Counted from the stretch's first letter, positions 15,729 to 56,903 are shown. The stretch is 64,000 nt of DNA from Spizellomyces punctatus DAOM BR117 (GCA_000182565.2 KQ257460.1), one strand, 5' to 3'. Numbers and translations: made by a program. The notes: generated by a model not told the origin, from the letters alone.

Positions 15729-17009
15729 TTGTGTTTTCATTGCGCGCGCCCGTCTCCCAACGTTTCTTTTTTTGTTTTCCAAAACACTCTTTATCATGCA
15801 GTGTTCACCTACTTTTCATTCGTATGCAGACTCTTGTCCAGTTGGAGGAGGAACCAGAGCACATACATTCCTGCAAAGGAGAGAGATGTGGAGGGATATA
15901 ATGTCTAATTGCATAGGACTAGAAGATGCTACCACATGACTGTTTATGGGAGATGGTCAACTTTGGAAATGATTGCTTTAAGACTGATTGAGCTTTTGCC
16001 GGCGCAAAAGCAGCGATAAGTAACATGGTCATCTCCTCTAATTCAACGTATCAAAAAGCCTTCATCTTTCCAACTCCCTCCTTGTCGACCTGGAAGATTC
16101 AAAAAGGCGACGCTGCGCAGTTGCATGAGCAGTTGTAATCACTGGATGGAATGCACTGGATTCATCCACTATCTCCACTAACGCCCATCCTCCCCAGCAC
16201 GCATCGTACAGAAAGGAAGATGTCGCCCACGGAGAGCAACGTCCTTGAATAGTCTTGTCGCCTTGTCACTGCGTATAGCCTCACAGATTTCATTGACATT
16301 CCACTAATGGCAGAAAGACATCGCTGGGTATGCTAGGGTGCTGTAGCAAGCGGAGATGCAGTCTCTTGTACCGATCCCAAACAAGTAGATGGAGATTGTA
16401 AACTTTCATTGCTACCTCCTACTTGCTCAAAACGTTCACGCCCTTTTCTGAACTGTATATTCTGGCGTTTGCATGCGCAACATTCAAAGAGTCCGTGTGC
16501 AAGTCACGTGTTATTATCTCCTTCACGTGTTCGTCTGAATGGATAGCAACATTTTTATCCTTGGAGTGTGATTGGATTGCATTCCACTCAACTCTCGCTT
16601 TTTTTTTTCTCCTGGTTTTTTTCGTCTCGTCCCCGTCGCGGATATAAAAAGGGAGTGGACGAGTCGCCCCCCCGCTTTTTTTTTCTTCTTTTTTTGCGTT
16701 AGCCAGCGGGTTTCCCTTCCTTCCGTCCCATTGTCCCCACACCCCCGTCTGCTGTCCGGTCTTATTTTTATCGAGGAATTTTGGGTATCTGTTCGGTAAG
16801 TAGTCAACGAGCGACGACGACGAAGAACTGCAGTCAATGGCGGTGTCCCCACCGTTTTGGCGCAGTTTTTTTTTTGCAGTCTGCTACAGGTATATAAAGA
16901 GTTTCCTTTCACTCACTTTTTCCTCTTGTTCCTGTTTGTTATTTTAGACTTAGAACATTTATAGAAGAGTCCTTGTTTTCTTCGTTTTATTCTTATTATC
17001 ATACCACAA

Positions 17010-20000
17010 ATGGCTGCAAAGGCTGACCCAAAGACCGCGACTCTTGTCGGCGACCTCCTCAACACCCTCACCACCGCTGCGACCTCGGATGAGCGACGGA
17101 CCGCTGCCAAAGACTTGGCTGGTATCGTCAAGACGGCCGGCGCGCGCGTCGGTCTCACCCAGTACGGTATCTTGGACGCTTTGAAAACCGCATCCGAGCA
17201 CAAGAAAAGCGCTGGAGCACGTGAAGGCTCGGTGCTCGCAATTACCGCCTTTGTAGAGGCCCTCGGTCACACTGCGGAACCTTACCTCGTTTCCCAACTT
17301 CCCCTCGTCATTGAGCTATTTGGTGACAAGGACAAGGATGTCCGTGCCGCTGCCGAAGAAGCTGGTGATGCGCTCTTCAAGCTTCCTGGACGGTTCTCTG
17401 TCCGTCTCCTGGTTCCTCTCCTCCTCTCCCAGCTCACAAACGAGAAAAAGTGGCAAACAAAGGTCGCTGCCCTAAAATACCTCGGCCGGATGTCTGAGCA
17501 CTCGGCAAGCCAAGTATGCGCTTGCTTGCCTGAGATCCTTCCCGTCGTCTCAACATGCATGTGGGACACAAAGCCTGAAGTCCAGGTTGCCGCCAAGGAG
17601 GCCATGACACAGGTTACTGGAACCATTGACAACATTGATATTATTCCTTTCTTGCCCTCATTGATTGGATGTATCGCCGACCCCGACGAAGTGCCAGAAT
17701 GCGTGTTCAAGCTCGCTGCTACCACTTTCGTGACTGAAGTTCAAGCTCCCACCCTTGCCATCATGGGTCCTCTTCTCACTCGTGGTCTTTCCGAGCGCAA
17801 GCCCGCTGTGCTCCGTCAAACTTGTGTCATTATTGACAACATGTGTAAGCTCGTTGAGAACCCCGCCGAGGCACATCAGTTCTTGCCTCCTCTTCTGCCC
17901 GGTATCGAACGTATCATTGACGTGCAGGCCGATCCTGAACTTCGTGCTGTGGCTGCCCGTGCGAAGGCCACCCTCATTCGTGTCGGTGGTGGTGCCGACG
18001 TTGAGACTGAGGACCCAGAGACTGTAGCCAAACGCAAGGCCGACGCGCACCAGGAGGTCCTTGACACCTTGAAAAAGACCATCAAGGACGTTACTGGTGG
18101 TGAAGTTGATACTCAGACGCTCGAGTACGTGGCTGCCCACATTGAGGCCATGTATGACACACGCATCTTCAACACCCCCGACTGGCACGGTGCCACTGTC
18201 GCGTTCATTGCCCCTTTCGTCGGTGAAGAAAAGGCCAAGGCTCTTGCCAAGCCCTTGCTTGTTCACTACCAGGCCTTGGACAAACTTCGTCAAAAGGATG
18301 CCAAGCAAGAAGATCTGGAGGAAGGCGAAGAACTTTGCAACTGCGAATTCTCTCTTGCGTACGGTGGTATGATTCTGCTCAACAACACCAAGCTTCGATT
18401 GGTCCGTGGTCAACGTTACGGTCTCTGCGGTCCCAACGGTGTCGGAAAGTCCACGCTTATGCGTGCCATCGCAAACGGCCAGTTGGAAGGTTTCCCTCCA
18501 GCCGATGAGTTGAAGACGGTCTTTGTCGAGCACACCCTCCAAGCTGAGGATGCTGACTTGTCCGTGCTCGACTTTGTCCTTGCTGACCCCAAGATGATGG
18601 AGAAGAAGGACGAAGTTGTCAGCACTTTGAAGAGCGTCGGCTTTAACGACGAGCGTCTCGCTCAGGCCGTCGGTTCCCTTTCTGGTGGTTGGAAGATGAA
18701 GCTCGAGCTTGCTCGTGCCATGTTGGAGAATGCCGATATTCTTCTTCTTGACGAACCTACAAACCATCTTGATGTGACCAACGTACAGTGGTTGGTGGAC
18801 TACCTGACCAACCTCCCCAACGTGACCTCGATGATTGTCTCTCACGACTCCAAATTCTTGGACAATGTTTGCACCAACATTATCCATTATGAGAACCGCA
18901 AACTCAAGACCTACCGTGGTAACTTGTCCAAATTTGTTGAGCAGCGTCCCGAGGCAAAGTCCTACTACGAACTCTCTGCCGCTACCGTAAAGTTCAAGTT
19001 CCCCGAGCCTGGATTCCTTGAAGGTATCAAGTCCAAGGACAAGGCGATCTTGAAGATGATTGGCGTCAACTTCACCTACCCCGGTGGCTCCAAGCCTACA
19101 CTTACTGGCATCTCATTGCAATGCTCTCTCAACTCTCGTGTTGCCGTCATTGGTCCCAACGGTGCTGGTAAATCTACCATGATCAAGCTCCTGACTGGTG
19201 AGCTCGTCGCCGACTCTGGTGACGTCTGGAAGCACCCCAACCTTCGTGTCGCCTACGTGGCCCAGCACGCCTTCCATCACGTTGAGCAGCATCTCGACAA
19301 GACTCCCAACGAGTACATTCGTTGGCGTTACCAGTACGGAGAGGACAAGGAATCCCTCATCAAGGCTGCCCGTCAGTTGACTCCCGAGGAGGAGGCTGCG
19401 CTCAAGAAGCCCATTACCATTGAAGGCGAGAAGCGTCTCTTTGAGGAAATCATGGGTCGTCGTAAGGCCAAGCGCTCATACGAGTACGAAGTCAAGTGGA
19501 TGAACCGTTCCCACGATGACAACACATGGCACTCTCGCGACCGTCTCGAGGACTGGGGTTTCGAAAAGATGGTCCAATGGTTTGATGAAAAGGAGGCAGC
19601 CAAGGAGGGTATGTACGCCCGTCCCTTGACTCAAAAGGGAGTCGAGCAGCACCTCAACGATGTCGGTTTGCAACCCGAGTTTGCTACCCACAGCCGTATC
19701 CGTGGTTTGTCTGGAGGACAAAAGGTCAAGGTTGTCCTTGGAGCGGCCATGTGGAACAACCCCCACATGTTGGTTCTTGATGAGCCTACCAACTATCTGG
19801 ACCGTGATTCCCTTGGTGCTCTTGCTGGTGCCATTCAAGACTTTGGCGGAGGTGTCGTTATCATTTCTCACAACCGCGAGTTCACTGGTGCGATTTGCCC
19901 CGAAGTGTGGAACGTTGATGCTGGAAAGCTTTCCATCACTGGTGCTAAGCGTGACATGCCCATTGAGAAGATTGAGTTGAAGGAAGCCGAGACTGTTACT

Positions 20001-20138
20001 GACGCTTTTGGCAACGTGAGCAAGGTGAAGTCCAAGAGAAAGCTTACCCGCAAGGAATTGAAGGCAAAGGAGAAGCGTCGTGCCCTCAAAATCAAGAACG
20101 GAGAGCCCCTTTCCGAATCAGACGAAGATGACTTTTAG
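17010..20138 (+). CDS. YEF3: Translation elongation factor 3 (eEF3), ABCF-type ATPase
   Basis: Intronless 1042-aa ORF: HEAT N-terminus, LCNCEFSLAYGG, two ABC cassettes (GPNGVGKST/LSGGWKMKL; GPNGAGKST/LSGGQKVK), chromodomain-like insert (YEYEVKW), basic C-tail; strong codon bias. Confidence 0.97.
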   Translation: MAAKADPKTATLVGDLLNTLTTAATSDERRTAAKDLAGIVKTAGARVGLTQYGILDALKTASEHKKSAGAREGSVLAITAFVEALGHTAEPYLVSQLPLVIELFGDKDKDVRAAAEEAGDALFKLPGRFSVRLLVPLLLSQLTNEKKWQTKVAALKYLGRMSEHSASQVCACLPEILPVVSTCMWDTKPEVQVAAKEAMTQVTGTIDNIDIIPFLPSLIGCIADPDEVPECVFKLAATTFVTEVQAPTLAIMGPLLTRGLSERKPAVLRQTCVIIDNMCKLVENPAEAHQFLPPLLPGIERIIDVQADPELRAVAARAKATLIRVGGGADVETEDPETVAKRKADAHQEVLDTLKKTIKDVTGGEVDTQTLEYVAAHIEAMYDTRIFNTPDWHGATVAFIAPFVGEEKAKALAKPLLVHYQALDKLRQKDAKQEDLEEGEELCNCEFSLAYGGMILLNNTKLRLVRGQRYGLCGPNGVGKSTLMRAIANGQLEGFPPADELKTVFVEHTLQAEDADLSVLDFVLADPKMMEKKDEVVSTLKSVGFNDERLAQAVGSLSGGWKMKLELARAMLENADILLLDEPTNHLDVTNVQWLVDYLTNLPNVTSMIVSHDSKFLDNVCTNIIHYENRKLKTYRGNLSKFVEQRPEAKSYYELSAATVKFKFPEPGFLEGIKSKDKAILKMIGVNFTYPGGSKPTLTGISLQCSLNSRVAVIGPNGAGKSTMIKLLTGELVADSGDVWKHPNLRVAYVAQHAFHHVEQHLDKTPNEYIRWRYQYGEDKESLIKAARQLTPEEEAALKKPITIEGEKRLFEEIMGRRKAKRSYEYEVKWMNRSHDDNTWHSRDRLEDWGFEKMVQWFDEKEAAKEGMYARPLTQKGVEQHLNDVGLQPEFATHSRIRGLSGGQKVKVVLGAAMWNNPHMLVLDEPTNYLDRDSLGALAGAIQDFGGGVVIISHNREFTGAICPEVWNVDAGKLSITGAKRDMPIEKIELKEAETVTDAFGNVSKVKSKRKLTRKELKAKEKRRALKIKNGEPLSESDEDDF

Positions 20139-51749: not shown

Positions 51750-52220
51750 TCACCACCGTCCCGTAACTAACCCCGTCCCACCAAACACTCGAGGATAAAC
51801 ACTCGTTTTGACAACCCTTCCAAAAACAATCTTTGAAATCCGTCCATTGCAAAACTCAAACTCTATTGGGCCTTGCACGCAATGGGGTCCGACGCAACAA
51901 CATCTTGTGTGATAAATGTATTTCCAAGTTGTTTTGGGAGCAATTGATTCTGGGATCAGGTCATGGAGAGATTGATGGCGAGAGACGAGAGCAAAGAGGT
52001 GGGTCAGGTGGAGTCGGTACTTTGTCTGGCAGTAGAGATGTATGATGGTCCATAAATTAAAAGAAAAAGCCCAAAATTCTTTGTTTGTTTTTACCTTTCC
52101 GTCAATCCGAGCCAGCTGATATATAACCGTAACATCATCTGTTAATAGATCCAAAAGAGGCTCCAATTGGAGATCAGATGTGGTTTGAAAGAAAGATTCA
52201 ATGAGCGCTTGTTCATTCAT
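51750..52220 (-). CDS. Small hypothetical protein, possibly NTF2/SnoaL-like fold
   Basis: MNEQALIESFFQ..DLQLEPLLDLLTDDVTV...GK and FEFCNGRISKI resemble SnoaL-like termini; likely 69-nt intron at 52026-52094. Confidence 0.5.
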   Translation of the reverse strand: MNEQALIESFFQTTSDLQLEPLLDLLTDDVTVIYQLARIDGKVKTNKEFWAFSFNLWTIIHLYCQTKYRLHLTHLFALVSRHQSLHDLIPESIAPKTTWKYIYHTRCCCVGPHCVQGPIEFEFCNGRISKIVFGRVVKTSVYPRVFGGTGLVTGRW

Positions 52221-53233
52221 GATAACGACCGAGTGGTATCTACGGCCGGACCTTGTTGTGCATGCATTGCAAAAGACCTTTTGTGAAAAGGTCCGACCTA
52301 TCGACGTCATGACTCGTCCCGTGCCCTTGTCTGGCAAACAATCTTTTCTCCAACTCTTTGTCATGATTGTACCACAGAGGGACTGACCATTTCGCACCTG
52401 CATTGCCCTTTGGATGCGACTGGTTCGGCCCCAAATTACCTAATGGAAAGGGCCCTCATTCATTTTCCGCATGTTTTTTTTTGGGAGGTCGGAATTTTTG
52501 GACACCCGGTGGTTGGGTTGCATGTTTGAGGCTTCAGGTGCAATTGTAGTTTCTGATCTTTTTCTTGATGGAAATTCCTGACTGCTTGATCAACAATAGC
52601 AATGCACTCAACCATTGAAAAATGTTAATGTCCCTTCCTACGTCCCTGCTGACAAAAACCCAAAATGGGTTCCGGGATTCCCTTAATATCTGCATTTTTG
52701 TTTCCCGTTTCCCACCAAGAAAAGCCTCCCCATATCTCTCTATTAAAAACTCTTGATACGTGGCAGGAATGGATTGGGGATTTTCGGACAAGATCGGAAG
52801 CGGGTAAAATAACTAAAGAAAATAGTTTTTCCACAAATGTCCGGTTGACAAATCCCGCTTTTTAGCGTGAAATTTTATTTTCCAATGCTTTTGATGTGTG
52901 TGACGATCAACGTGGCAGAATCTTATAGACGGATATTTCCCTTGTTGTTGTTTGGGCTTTTTGTTCAACGGGGGGAACCTCCGTATTGGCGAAATCTCCG
53001 AACGGCAGACAGGCGGGTTGCTTGGTCAAAGGTTTTTTTTTCTAATCACCGCCGTGTGTGTGTGCAAAAGCATTTGGGTTGCTGTGTATGTTCTTTTTGG
53101 TCGGGGGCTCCGTTCCCATCTGGCACTATTTAATGGCTGCTCCTCCACTTGTCACCCCTCACATACACATTATCATTTCGACATCATCTTGATTTCTTCC
53201 ACTCTCCCTCCGCAACTGCTTTACTAATACGTT

Positions 53234-53245
53234 ATGTCCGCGTAA
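53234..53245 (+). promoter_or_regulatory. uORF1 (Met-Ser-Ala-stop) in the leader of the GCN4-like gene
   Basis: ATG TCC GCG TAA followed by an A-rich stretch. Confidence 0.6.
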
Positions 53246-53331
53246 AGCAAAATCAAACGGAGCCTTGGCCCTTGTCTCTTTGGAGCTGTTTTGTAATCCT
53301 TTTTATTTTTCTTAAAATCTCTCGGCCAATT

Positions 53332-53478
53332 ATGGCTTCCTCTTCCAACCTGTTTGCGAATGGTTTTATCTACCACAACCACCAATTGAATAACAACAAC
53401 ACACCCGTCAACAACTGTATTATCTTTGACGTTCCTCGCATCGAGTTGCTCTCTCCTCGCTTTTTCAAGAAACGCTGA
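53332..53478 (+). promoter_or_regulatory. uORF2 (48 codons, MASSSNLF...) ending 11 nt before the main ATG
   Basis: ATG in ATGG context at 53332, TGA ending at 53478; out of frame with the ATG at 53490. Confidence 0.6.
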
Positions 53479-53489
53479 AACAAGTCAAC

Positions 53490-54811
53490 ATGGCATCAAG
53501 TGATGCGCTTTGCTTTTTCGATCTCGATTCCTATATGGGTAGGTGTCTGCTTTTCATGCCTGACGTTTGTGTGTTGCTTTGCCCTTTTTGTGTTTGTCGC
53601 TCGTCAAAAGGTCAGGCCTGCCGAAAGGGCAGCTGTTGCTGTGTGCTTTCTCGCAGGCTGCTGGGAACTGTGACTGCGCCTCAGTCGCGTTCCATGGAAG
53701 GGCGGGCAGGCTTTTTGACCACTATTCTATAAAACCTTTTGGTTTTCCTTGGCCTTTCCTGCTGTTCGCAGTTGGCCTGCCTCTTTCACAAACTCTTTTT
53801 TTTTTGGCTCTCATGTCTTATCCATATTATGCTTTTCGTCCTTCAGATTCACCCTACACCACTACCATGACGGATACGTCATCCCCCGGCAGTGTATATC
53901 CGAGCTACCCAATATCGCCCGAGGTGTCCGATCCGCTGGCCACATTCTTCAACGATATGAACGCCATGCCAATGTTTGACGACACAAAGGGCCAGCAAAC
54001 CGGAGACAAGCTGTTTGAACAGCTTCTTTTGGACAGCGTGAGTCCTACAACGTCTACAAATGACATTCGGTACGGAGCGCCGCCGGTCGCCACCAGCCAT
54101 CCTGGATTCTATAACGCAAGTCCTGCTACTACGACAATGACTGCTACGAGTCCCGACGGATCCCCTCAAACAGATGGGCTCCTCTCACCAGCCTTTAGTC
54201 CAGCCCCATCAGACTTTCACACGTCACCTGAAGCGGGATCTCCGCTACCGTCGTTTGATTCCTTTGATGTCAACTTTCAACCCATGTACGATTTGGATGT
54301 TTCCTGTGGCGCTGTACCTCCGGCAACCACCGAAAAGAAACCACCGATTGATCTCAAGAAACTGGACATGCTCAAGGCTGGTGCTCAACATCAGCAAGTC
54401 CGCGCATTGTTCCCTGAGCTATTGCCAACCATAGAACGGCTACGAGAGGTAGTACTGAAAAAGGATGGTGCTCAAGAGCCCCAGACTACAACACCGTCGG
54501 CACCCTCCTCGTCTGTAAACGTCCCTTGGGCCGCCACGTCAACACATTTAATGCAGTCAACAGAATCGACACAACCAATAAAAGGTCGAGTCGGCCGCAA
54601 GCGAAAGCCACGACCAACAGATCCCCTTCTCATTGCCGCGGAGCAGCACGCCAAGCGGCAAAAGAACACAGAAGCCGCCCGCCGGTCCCGTTTGCGCAAG
54701 ATGCTCAAAATGGAAACATTAGAAGAGGAACTCAAGGCAGTGACAGATGAGCGGGATGAGCTAAGGGAAAGAGTTCGGCTTTTGGAACAACAGCTTGAAA
54801 GAAAGGCTTAG
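53490..54811 (+). CDS. GCN4: Gcn4/CpcA-type bZIP transcription factor (exons 53490-53538 and 53847-54811 inferred)
   Basis: C-terminal KRQKNTEAARRSRLRK plus leucine zipper matches the Gcn4 basic region. Acidic/aromatic activation patches present. GTAGGT donor at 53539 and pyrimidine-tract CAG acceptor at 53846 join in frame; strong start context caacATGG. Confidence 0.85.
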
Positions 54812-55644
54812 CGCTACTTTTCTGCAAATTTCATTTACAGTATTCTGGATGGAGTAGGAGGGCAACCTGCTGGTTCGGGATTATTCCTTTTTTTTTGTAC
54901 ATCTGTAGTATAATAATGAAAAGCCTATTCCAAAACGTTGCGAAACGTGATCTGATTGTAATCACGTGGAGGTGATTTGTGACAGTGTCTTTTACAGATT
55001 TCGTTAGCGCCAAGCTGTTCCAAAAAGCACTGCTGTGGCATTTTTACGACAAGGAAGGCTCCAGATATGGAGCGGATGTAGGACGGGAAATGTTTCCCTA
55101 GATGCACTTTTAGATAGTTACAGTGGTGCTTTGCCAAAAGAAATCACAAGATGGTGACCATCAGGGCGTAACCTACACTCTTTCGCCCACCTCCATCTAG
55201 AAAGGCATTTTGGGTTAAAGGTTAAAAATAAGCCACAGGGTTTCCTTACAGAAAAAGCACACTCTGAAAGGAACGTCTTTAGCTATTCACGGAGGGTGCA
55301 CGCGGAGGACGTACACAAACGTAATATTCAAAAATACACCAAAAACGGTTCTTGTATCCCATTTTGGAGGGCTATTTATAGCTATTCCGTGCGCGATTAG
55401 TGTAAACACTTGTTGCAACAAAAGAGACATGGCATTGGTACTTTGGTTTACAAAAATTAAAAAAAGAGCCAGCCAGAACAGAAAGTCTTAACTTTTTTAT
55501 TTTTTTTACAAAAATATCTATACCTCCCATCGGATTCCCCCCCTTTTGCCTACCCTTTCGCTTTCGAATTCTGGTCTATTGTCGTTTAGTTTTTCTTTGT
55601 TGTTTGTTTTTTGTTCTCTTTGAGCAGTTGTTTTGAGGTTGATC

Positions 55645-56903
55645 ATGACTGGAGTAACTTCCACTACGAGCGTAAAGTCGAGCACGTCGACTAAAAAACC
55701 CAAAAAGTCCTTATCAGTGCGGGACAGTACGTTGCTGAAAATCTTGCAGGGTAAAACGTGTTATCCGCTGTCATTGGGCGAGTTTAAAAAGTTTTTGGGT
55801 ATGTTGTGATTAGAGTTTTGTTGCGAACGTGACGAGTTTTTTCTAATGTATTCATGCGGGGCTGGTTGGTAAACTTATAGAGACGAGAGAATTCTCTGCA
55901 GAGAACCTTGCTGTCGTCGAATGGTTCATTAGTTATCGAACCCGATTCAATGCGCTCCCAACCTCGGAACGCGAACGCTCTCCCCCACCTGCCTCGTCCG
56001 ACCAACAAGGAACGCTCGGTGCCCTCTCGATAGGAAGCAATGCATCAAGGACATCAACGCCAGATTCGCCAGGTGGGGAAGGACCCACCATCTCACTAGC
56101 GAACCAGGACCTCGAGTTTTTCCAAGTCCTGTTCCAGGGCTTTGATGCCCAAAACACGCCCGACATTAAACTGGATCAAAAACTGGTTGCGGATATCGGA
56201 AGAAAAGACCAACCCTTCCGTTCCGAAGTCAATGCAGCCATCAAACTCTTTTTCACTACCGAAGGAAGTATGGAATTGAATGTCCCCGGAACAATGCGAA
56301 AAGAAATTGTCTCAAATGCGGCCTTGACGACACATCCCGCCGTCTTTGCGCCAGCCGTGAAGCATTGTTTTGATATCATGCAGTCATCGAGTTTACCATC
56401 CTTTATGCGATTTGCGGCTCAGAATATTCAAAAGGATTCCCGGATTGATCGAGGTGTCAAGGGGATTGTGTGCTTCATCCTGGCGTTTATCATGACGTTT
56501 TTACTGGTATGTCTCGTTGTGACTGTCGCAAAGGCGCCTCAGCTCGTGTTTTTTAATCGTTTTGTTTTTACCGACGCAGATTTGGTTCAACAAGTCCCGC
56601 TGGACTCGATTGGGCACCTTCCCCCTCTTCCAACTCTCCGCGTCCTTCCTCTACACTGTCCACACAAGAATGTGCCTTCTCAACCACATGGGCCGCAAAA
56701 AAGAAGTGATTATCGTTGACCAAGATTTAGAAAAAGATGGACGGGATGACGATAATCCCAGAGGCAAACTCCTCATACACACTGTGGAAGAACCTATGGT
56801 GTTTGATATGCAGACACGAATCAAGTTGGAAACATTGGCATTGGCGACCGTGATAGGGGCGTGCTTGACGACGATAGCTGTAGCGATACCCGAGCACTTT
56901 TAG
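55645..56903 (+). CDS. RGS-domain protein with C-terminal TM helices (Rax1-like architecture)
   Basis: ILQGKTCYPLSLGEFKKFL|ETREFSAENL, QPFRSEV, ELNVPGTMRK, THPAVF, SLPSF, then three hydrophobic segments. Confidence 0.82.

Follow-up and report, generated by a model that had tools for sequence, protein, structure and literature searches.

The window, a stretch of 64,000 nucleotides (nt) from the chytrid Spizellomyces punctatus DAOM BR117 (KQ257460.1), carries on its plus strand a gene at 53490-54811 that, judged by its sequence, is a GCN4/cpc-1-type bZIP gene. Upstream of it lies a leader with several upstream open reading frames (uORFs). A sequence-only reading of this DNA had proposed that the leader is a translational switch of the cpc-1/ATF4 kind, in which a very short uORF permits reinitiation and a longer one inhibits it. 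The coding exons (53490-53538 and 53847-54811), joined over a GT..AG intron, translate into 337 amino acids identical to database protein P0001 (SPPG_06342, S. punctatus), so the main ATG at 53490 and the intron given in that reading are correct. The reading had also remarked on a competing 414-amino-acid model starting inside the intron. That model, from an open reading frame (ORF) track, is explained by a stop-to-stop frame of 415 codons at 53564-54808, which begins inside the intron and would yield 414 amino acids from a TTG at 53567. The features of the locus are as follows.

53127..53134, plus strand: TATA-like element TATTTAAT, a candidate core promoter at -363, overlapping the ATG of the 19-codon ORF
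53133..53192, plus strand: 19-codon ORF, AUG at -357 with T at -3 (weak context); it forms the end of a 34-codon ORF that opens at 53088
53234..53245, plus strand: uORF1, 3 codons, AUG at -256, G at -3, putatively reinitiation-permissive
53246..53331, plus strand: spacer between uORF1 and uORF2, 86 nt, free of AUGs and unstructured (fold z +1.34)
53332..53478, plus strand: uORF2, 48 codons, AUG at -158, frame +1, A at -3 and G at +4, putatively inhibitory
53360..53389, plus strand: nested uORF, 9 codons, AUG at -130, frame +2, 28 nt past the uORF2 AUG, a putative back-up trap
53490..53538, plus strand: coding part of exon 1, with the main ATG, 16 codons plus 1 nt, and an acidic-aromatic FDLD-type motif
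53539..53846, plus strand: intron, 308 nt, phase 1, GT..AG
53847..54811, plus strand: exon 2, with a Ser/Pro/acidic region and the C-terminal GCN4-type bZIP (~54640-54800)

All four uORFs lie where the sequence-only reading had placed them, with AUGs at -357, -256, -158, and -130 as counted from the ATG at 53490. uORF2 terminates 11 nt short of the main ATG, without overlap with the main ORF. The main AUG lies 158 nt past the uORF2 AUG and 244 nt past the uORF1 stop, and between uORF1 and the main AUG the main frame is closed by three stops, the last ending 60 nt short of that AUG. Inhibition likely falls to uORF2 and the nested uORF as a unit, which brings the leader nearer to the three- to four-AUG leaders of Basidiomycota. 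The uORF2 peptide has no Pfam match, and its similarity to the uORF2 peptide of the paralogue described below was reached by 300 of 1000 shuffles; on this lack of a match and of likeness we rejected a peptide-dependent uORF2. The A-rich 3' flank that had been noted for uORF1 is present (A+T of 0.75 over the 12 nt after the stop) but has no diagnostic value, as the nested uORF has the same value, uORF2 has 0.67, and uORF1 of the paralogue has 0.50. A search for Rfam-type RNA families in the leader and intron returned a single match, a poxvirus element at 52264-52294 far under the gathering score, which we take as chance.

The assignment to the GCN4 type draws on several comparisons. The C-terminal bZIP matched Pfam bZIP_2 above the cut-off (E 3.1e-08), and all four PDB matches at an E cut-off of 0.01 were GCN4 chains (E 6e-05 to 1.4e-04). 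There are eleven bZIP_2 matches in the S. punctatus genome. Four of these eleven (SPPG_06342 and the genes on C1, C17, and C14) outscored the remaining bZIPs against a yeast-like GCN4 from L016 and the mould protein P0022, with SPPG_06342 fourth of the four against these two Dikarya-type anchors. A bZIP tree of thirty-two rows, from which P0022 was dropped by a motif filter, did not settle in its bootstraps or resolve at its base. Given the base of the tree, SPPG_06342 is, on its sequence, a co-homologue of Dikarya GCN4/cpc-1 and not a demonstrated one-to-one orthologue. The pattern of the exon-1 motif was found in thirteen of forty listed proteins (twelve near the N-terminus and one further in) and occurs in both paralogue groups. 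TGACTCA, which contains the TGACTC site through which GCN4/cpc-1 proteins activate amino-acid biosynthesis genes, is present 2240 times in the genome, versus 1601 copies of the reversed control, a count not tied to target genes.

The genome also encodes GCN2 (with kinase, HisRS-like, and C-terminal domains and a weak RWD match below the cut-off), GCN1, UPF1, Mago, and an eIF2alpha with the Ser51 motif. Such genes are necessary for the proposed switch but widespread, and thus add little weight to the model.

The nearest bZIP in the genome is a paralogue on G000:C1, with 55 per cent identity over the bZIP region and a gene model of 370 amino acids identical to database protein P0023. Its leader has the following location.

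L006 3320-3780 (G000:C1 ~1406320-1406780), minus strand: paralogue leader, which has a canonical TATA box and matches SPPG_06342 in uORF layout and phase-1 intron

The AUGs of the paralogue lie at -288, -161, -136, and -129, compared with -256, -158, and -130 in SPPG_06342. Its uORF1 (5 codons at -288) ends in the same last two residues and TAA, and its uORF2 (25 codons at -161) is likewise in frame +1, the AUG flanked by A at -3 and G at +4. The nested AUG at -136 is in frame +2, 25 nt past the uORF2 AUG, with one more AUG at -129. Here the spacer between uORF1 and uORF2 is 109 nt, the uORF1 stop lies 270 nt before the main AUG, and four stops close the main frame in between, the last ending 9 nt before the main AUG. 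The paralogue intron (62 nt, phase 1) follows the same acidic-aromatic motif. The two leaders are only weakly similar in nucleotides (9 of 500 shuffles), in part through low-complexity CAA runs, and alignment revealed no relatedness between their uORF peptides; this combination fits selection on layout, that is, on positions, frames, and contexts. Nor was a conserved leader structure found among six segments, only one of which (the paralogue spacer, z -3.44) folds better than shuffles, against z +1.34 for the spacer of SPPG_06342. Both gene types are present in Borealophlyctis (order Rhizophlyctidales), so the duplication would be older than the split of that order from Spizellomycetales, as hit lists and a rough tree suggest.

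The chance of finding such a layout was assessed with shuffled leaders and with 150 candidate gene starts, taken from fifty-nine spaced 10-kb stretches, ten other loci, and most of the window; these starts are long frames with an early Met, many perhaps internal exons, and not mapped leaders. We defined a loose layout as a first AUG opening at most six codons and a next AUG at least 50 nt past that stop opening at least fifteen codons. A context version further required both AUGs to have a purine at -3 and the second to have G at +4. For the leader of SPPG_06342, the loose layout appeared in 828 of 20,000 shuffles, two of the 150 candidate starts, and none of forty-one filtered starts, and the context version in 16 of 20,000 shuffles and one of the 150 starts. 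With the start site left free (-200 to -440), the counts were 244 and 4 of 2000 shuffles, respectively. The leader passes the layout test in windows of 290, 320, and 350 nt. Taken alone, the layout of SPPG_06342 is no more than suggestive. The paralogue serves as an out-of-sample test because the pattern in the sequence-only reading came from SPPG_06342 alone. Its leader gave the loose layout in 693 and the context version in 12 of 20,000 shuffles; once the start site was left free, the counts became 224 and 11 of 2000. The full pattern shared by both genes, under criteria set post hoc, was reached by none of the 150 candidate starts and none of 20,000 shuffles.

The start of transcription is suggested by promoter position. 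The TATA-like element TATTTAAT of SPPG_06342 (-363) lies at nearly the same distance from the main ATG as the canonical TATA box of the paralogue (-377), and this variant is reported to be an active TATA element of yeast HIS3 (PMC4457894), so we infer that it may serve as the core promoter here. Since TATTTAAT overlaps the ATG of the 19-codon ORF, that ORF would then fall outside the mRNA. The sequence-only reading had suspected that the 19-codon ORF precedes the transcript start, and we judge this probable from the overlap and from the lack of a counterpart downstream of the paralogue TATA box; the ORF would probably stand outside the switch. With a start site past 53135, the very short uORF1 would be the first uORF of the transcript; with an earlier one, the 19-codon ORF leads.

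Transcript evidence came from four of twenty sequencing runs. In X18 (60-nt reads, 2009 placed, about 6 per cent of the data read), depth peaks at 329 at the 3' end, with a poly(A) loose end at 54935 in sixty-eight reads. Across the leader (52968-53572) its depth was 1.8-4.8 sense and 0.6-9.1 antisense, and these thin reads on both strands also cover the uORFs. Contig X1 (53189-53412) covers uORF1 and the start of uORF2, though the RNA origin of its run is a guess. No read or contig in the four runs joins the leader to exon 2, and support for the splice 53538/53847 comes from the database model, the exon-1 motif in both paralogue groups, and the matching paralogue intron.

Compared with known systems, the leader is closest in outline to cpc-1. 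Like that of Neurospora crassa, it precedes a GCN4-type bZIP; after a 3-codon uORF1 comes uORF2, which is longer, sits in strong context out of frame with the main ORF, and terminates ahead of the main AUG. In Pezizomycotina cpc-1 the two uORFs are reported to span 3-6 and 35-70 codons including stops (PMC5487733). Counted in the same way, those of SPPG_06342 (4 and 49 codons) fall inside these ranges, and those of the paralogue have 6 and 26 codons, the latter below the range. The leader of SPPG_06342 would be about 300-330 nt long if the TATA-like element is right, compared with 703 nt in N. crassa, and its uORF2 is in frame +1, compared with -1 in all Pezizomycotina examined in that study (PMC5487733). 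The nested AUG within uORF2 is a further difference from cpc-1 of Neurospora and other Pezizomycotina, and the three stops in the main frame (four in the paralogue) mean that there is no non-AUG N-terminal extension bypassing uORF2.

Basidiomycota cpc-1 homologues share with the chytrid genes the presence of three to four upstream AUGs, some inside another uORF, as well as a short uORF1, a longer uORF in good context after it, and paralogues within one genome; in contrast, all thirty-two examined there are free of stops from uORF1 to the main AUG, whereas both chytrid genes are closed (PMC5487733). Saccharomyces cerevisiae GCN4 has a homologous bZIP, a 3-codon uORF1, no N-terminal extension, and more than one downstream AUG as a fail-safe, but its four uORFs are short and separate, unlike the long uORF2 here (PMC5972666). 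The yeast uORFs also have Cys or Pro as last codon, and a specific AU-rich element follows uORF1 (PMC5972666); in both chytrid genes uORF1 ends in Ala, and its flank is not distinctive. Mammalian ATF4 resembles the proposed switch in its uORF control by eIF2alpha phosphorylation, but its uORF2 overlaps the main ORF and the chytrid one stops 11 nt short (PMC5972666). With no overlap and no ATF4 chain among the PDB matches of SPPG_06342 at E 0.01, the ATF4 comparison made from sequence stands as an analogy of logic and not as family membership. Fission yeast Fil1, called an analogue in PMC7049704, would share the same logic of uORFs and eIF2alpha phosphorylation.

Together, the GCN4-like bZIP, the uORF sizes, the layout of the paralogue, and the pathway genes give comparative support to the short-then-long switch proposed from sequence, and we consider it likely that the leader of SPPG_06342 works by delayed reinitiation as in cpc-1. 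In the GCN4/cpc-1 model, uORF1 is translated and ribosomes then rescan, to be captured or to bypass downstream AUGs depending on ternary complex (PMC5972666; PMC5487733), and cpc-1 without its uORF1 AUG is reported to retain 15 per cent activity, with induction abolished (PMC5487733). The same paper reports that, for cpc-1, the ratio of ribosome footprints on the main ORF to those on uORF2 climbs from 0.57 to 1.66 with 3-AT. For SPPG_06342, transcription would start at about 53155-53190, and scanning ribosomes would translate the 3 codons of uORF1 and then scan onward. With abundant eIF2 ternary complex, they would reload within the 86-nt spacer, initiate at uORF2 or the nested AUG, and be released. 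Restart at the main AUG would be inefficient because uORF2 ends too close to it, 11 nt before. When GCN2 phosphorylates eIF2alpha, reloading would slow, and some subunits would get past both AUGs to initiate at 53490. The spacing suits delayed reinitiation, with uORF2 and the main AUG 86 and 244 nt past the uORF1 stop (109 and 270 nt in the paralogue). Translation of uORF2 may also mark the mRNA for nonsense-mediated decay (NMD). The exon junction is 60 nt past the uORF2 stop, and in Neurospora the cpc-1 mRNA is reported to be an NMD/UPF target, with uORF-triggered decay described as independent of the exon junction complex (PMC10578600).

A number of observations weigh against delayed reinitiation in this leader. 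The number of AUGs is at chance (three in 320 nt, with a shuffle mean of 3.16), and the layout test fails in windows of 400 and 440 nt, because the 19-codon ORF then comes first; moreover, inspection of the leaders preceded the choice of a 320-nt window and of the criteria on context and frame. The context of uORF1 is middling, with T at +4, its last codon is Ala where yeast uORF1 and 2 have Cys, and its A-rich flank is not common to the paralogue. The layout is kept in the single closest paralogue and in none of three more distant related bZIPs, whose starts were picked by eye. Of these, C17 (L007, minus strand) has eight AUGs in 316 nt behind a TATA box with no short first uORF, C14 has a single AUG after a TATA-like run, and C3 has none within 330 nt. 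Leaders of chytrid orthologues were found neither in a metagenome scan nor in genome contigs (0 of 195) or viral contigs (0 of 99): only two of the 594 pattern hits from the scan were confirmed, both the same AT-rich yeast-like GCN4 and not chytrid.

The transcript data add to these points. Leader depth in X18 is about 1 per cent of the 3' peak and on both strands, and no transcript start was called in any of the four runs. Sense depth of 1.8-2.8 at 52968-53209 allows a longer leader, and the sparse reads lying 5' of 53133 speak against one sharp start. The 53538/53847 spliced joint is not listed in any of the four runs, and contig X16 (53801-54331) crosses the acceptor unspliced, with forty-six intronic letters. 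The X16 run does show a spliced joint in the neighbouring minus-strand gene and has no real leader coverage.

The uORFs might instead be functional without reinitiation, with uORF2 and the nested AUG capturing ribosomes and induction arising through leaky scanning in stress, as for Candida albicans GCN4, or they might just hold protein and mRNA low via decay. The positions and frames of uORF2 and the nested AUG are indeed the best conserved elements, while uORF1 of SPPG_06342 has the weaker context and an A/U-rich flank that is not conserved. UPF1 is present, and C. albicans GCN4, which has three uORFs, is reported to be regulated without reinitiation (PMC5972666), a precedent that also counts against the cpc-1 model. 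However, both paralogues keep a 3-5 codon uORF 86-109 nt before uORF2, with the same last two residues and stop, and a kept uORF1 counts against pure repression, which has no need of it. We regard this account as unlikely. It is very improbable that the uORFs are merely chance AUGs in a non-coding stretch with no regulatory role. The AUG count equal to the shuffle mean, the frequency of the loose layout (4 per cent of shuffles, 11-12 per cent with a free start site), and the lack of conservation in the uORF peptides all agree with chance, but the layout, frames, and contexts recur in the paralogue, the full pattern was absent from all 150 starts and 20,000 shuffles (post hoc), and the gene belongs to a family for which such a layout is a known regulator.

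Much of the protein could also come from a uORF-free transcript, made from a second promoter in the intron or from intron-retaining RNA and translated from in-frame ATGs at 53813 (in the intron) or 53867; the leader would then control just a share of the output. The intron has a TATAAAA at 53728, and a TATAWAW match was reached by only 23 of 5000 intron shuffles; the same motif is nevertheless found in 259 of 3776 genomic 308-nt windows. Contig X16, unspliced over the acceptor in a run lacking real leader coverage, fits such a transcript, as do P0002 and P0003, which are annotated without the exon-1 motif. Contigs cannot show starts, though, and pre-mRNA or DNA would explain X16, which begins in a T run. 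X18 depth is near zero at 53694-53814, the exon-1 motif is conserved in both paralogue groups, and the paralogue has an intron of just 62 nt. We rejected coding or non-AUG use of the intronic 94-codon open frame on the ground that 498 of 5000 shuffles reach it. A major uORF-free source of protein seems to us quite improbable. The two ideas can be combined, such that both paralogues keep an ancestral fungal switch and SPPG_06342 has added an intronic promoter making a uORF-free mRNA for an N-terminally shortened activator. The ancestral form would then have had a short uORF1, a uORF2 and its nested AUG each in a fixed frame, a closed main frame, and an intron just after the start that couples uORF2 translation to decay. 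We hold this combination to be improbable; if true, the intronic promoter would be a transcriptional bypass of the switch, the role played by non-AUG starts in Dikarya cpc-1.

Other features were seen at and around the locus. A long GC-rich hairpin at about 53603-53719 in the intron scores z -2.92 in a window picked post hoc, compared with z -1.79 over the entire intron, and has no Rfam match. P0005, P0006, and P0007, homologues from Rhizophlyctidales, are annotated with a similar N-terminal extension of 20-30 residues before the exon-1 motif. A frameshift or fusion, implied if the longer N-termini of P0004-P0007 were homologous to uORF2 or to the main frame upstream, was rejected, as none of eight comparisons beat shuffles. 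In the leader of C17, a third GCN4-type bZIP gene, the 430 nt upstream of the presumed start hold a denser, different uORF arrangement, and a leader intron is possible. L016 (10-1045) and L017 carry the intronless yeast-like GCN4 behind four short uORFs of 3, 6, 5, and 5 codons. On the minus strand at 51750-52440 is a divergent transcribed unit with a spliced 69-nt intron (52026-52094) and a long frame without a Pfam match; the one TGACTC site within 52000-55000 that autoregulation by GCN4 might use, at 52310, lies inside this unit, some 920 nt 5' of uORF1. TATAWAWR matches are enriched, with 22 in the window where 9.05 would be expected. The window also holds an eEF3 gene at 16965-20135, with TATA boxes upstream, and an RGS-domain gene at 55645-56903, downstream of the GCN4 homologue.

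The mechanism itself is well known and part of textbooks, and its depth in fungi is undocumented in the literature we searched. That search, which had most subscription journals and the supplements of PMC5487733 outside its scope, found no paper on a GCN4 uORF leader from a chytrid or other early-diverging fungus. The main comparative study states that few sequences existed to draw on beyond Ascomycota and Basidiomycota (PMC5487733). In the passages searched, a paper listing a Gcn4 in mycorrhizal fungi does not mention uORFs (PMC8401276), and one noting a two-uORF bZIP in Cryptococcus does not mention chytrids (PMC7049704).

From the two leaders compared here, the GCN4 uORF switch probably already existed in early fungi. 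If true, a chytrid example in two old paralogues would place GCN4 uORF control near the base of the fungi. The paralogue pair would also be a natural experiment, in which positions, frames, and contexts matter and the peptide, the A-rich flank, and the structure of the spacer do not. Finally, the chytrid pair may serve as an outgroup for the non-AUG N-terminal extension of cpc-1. The closed main frames of both chytrid genes suggest that this extension arose later, and leave undecided whether it had one origin or two within Dikarya.

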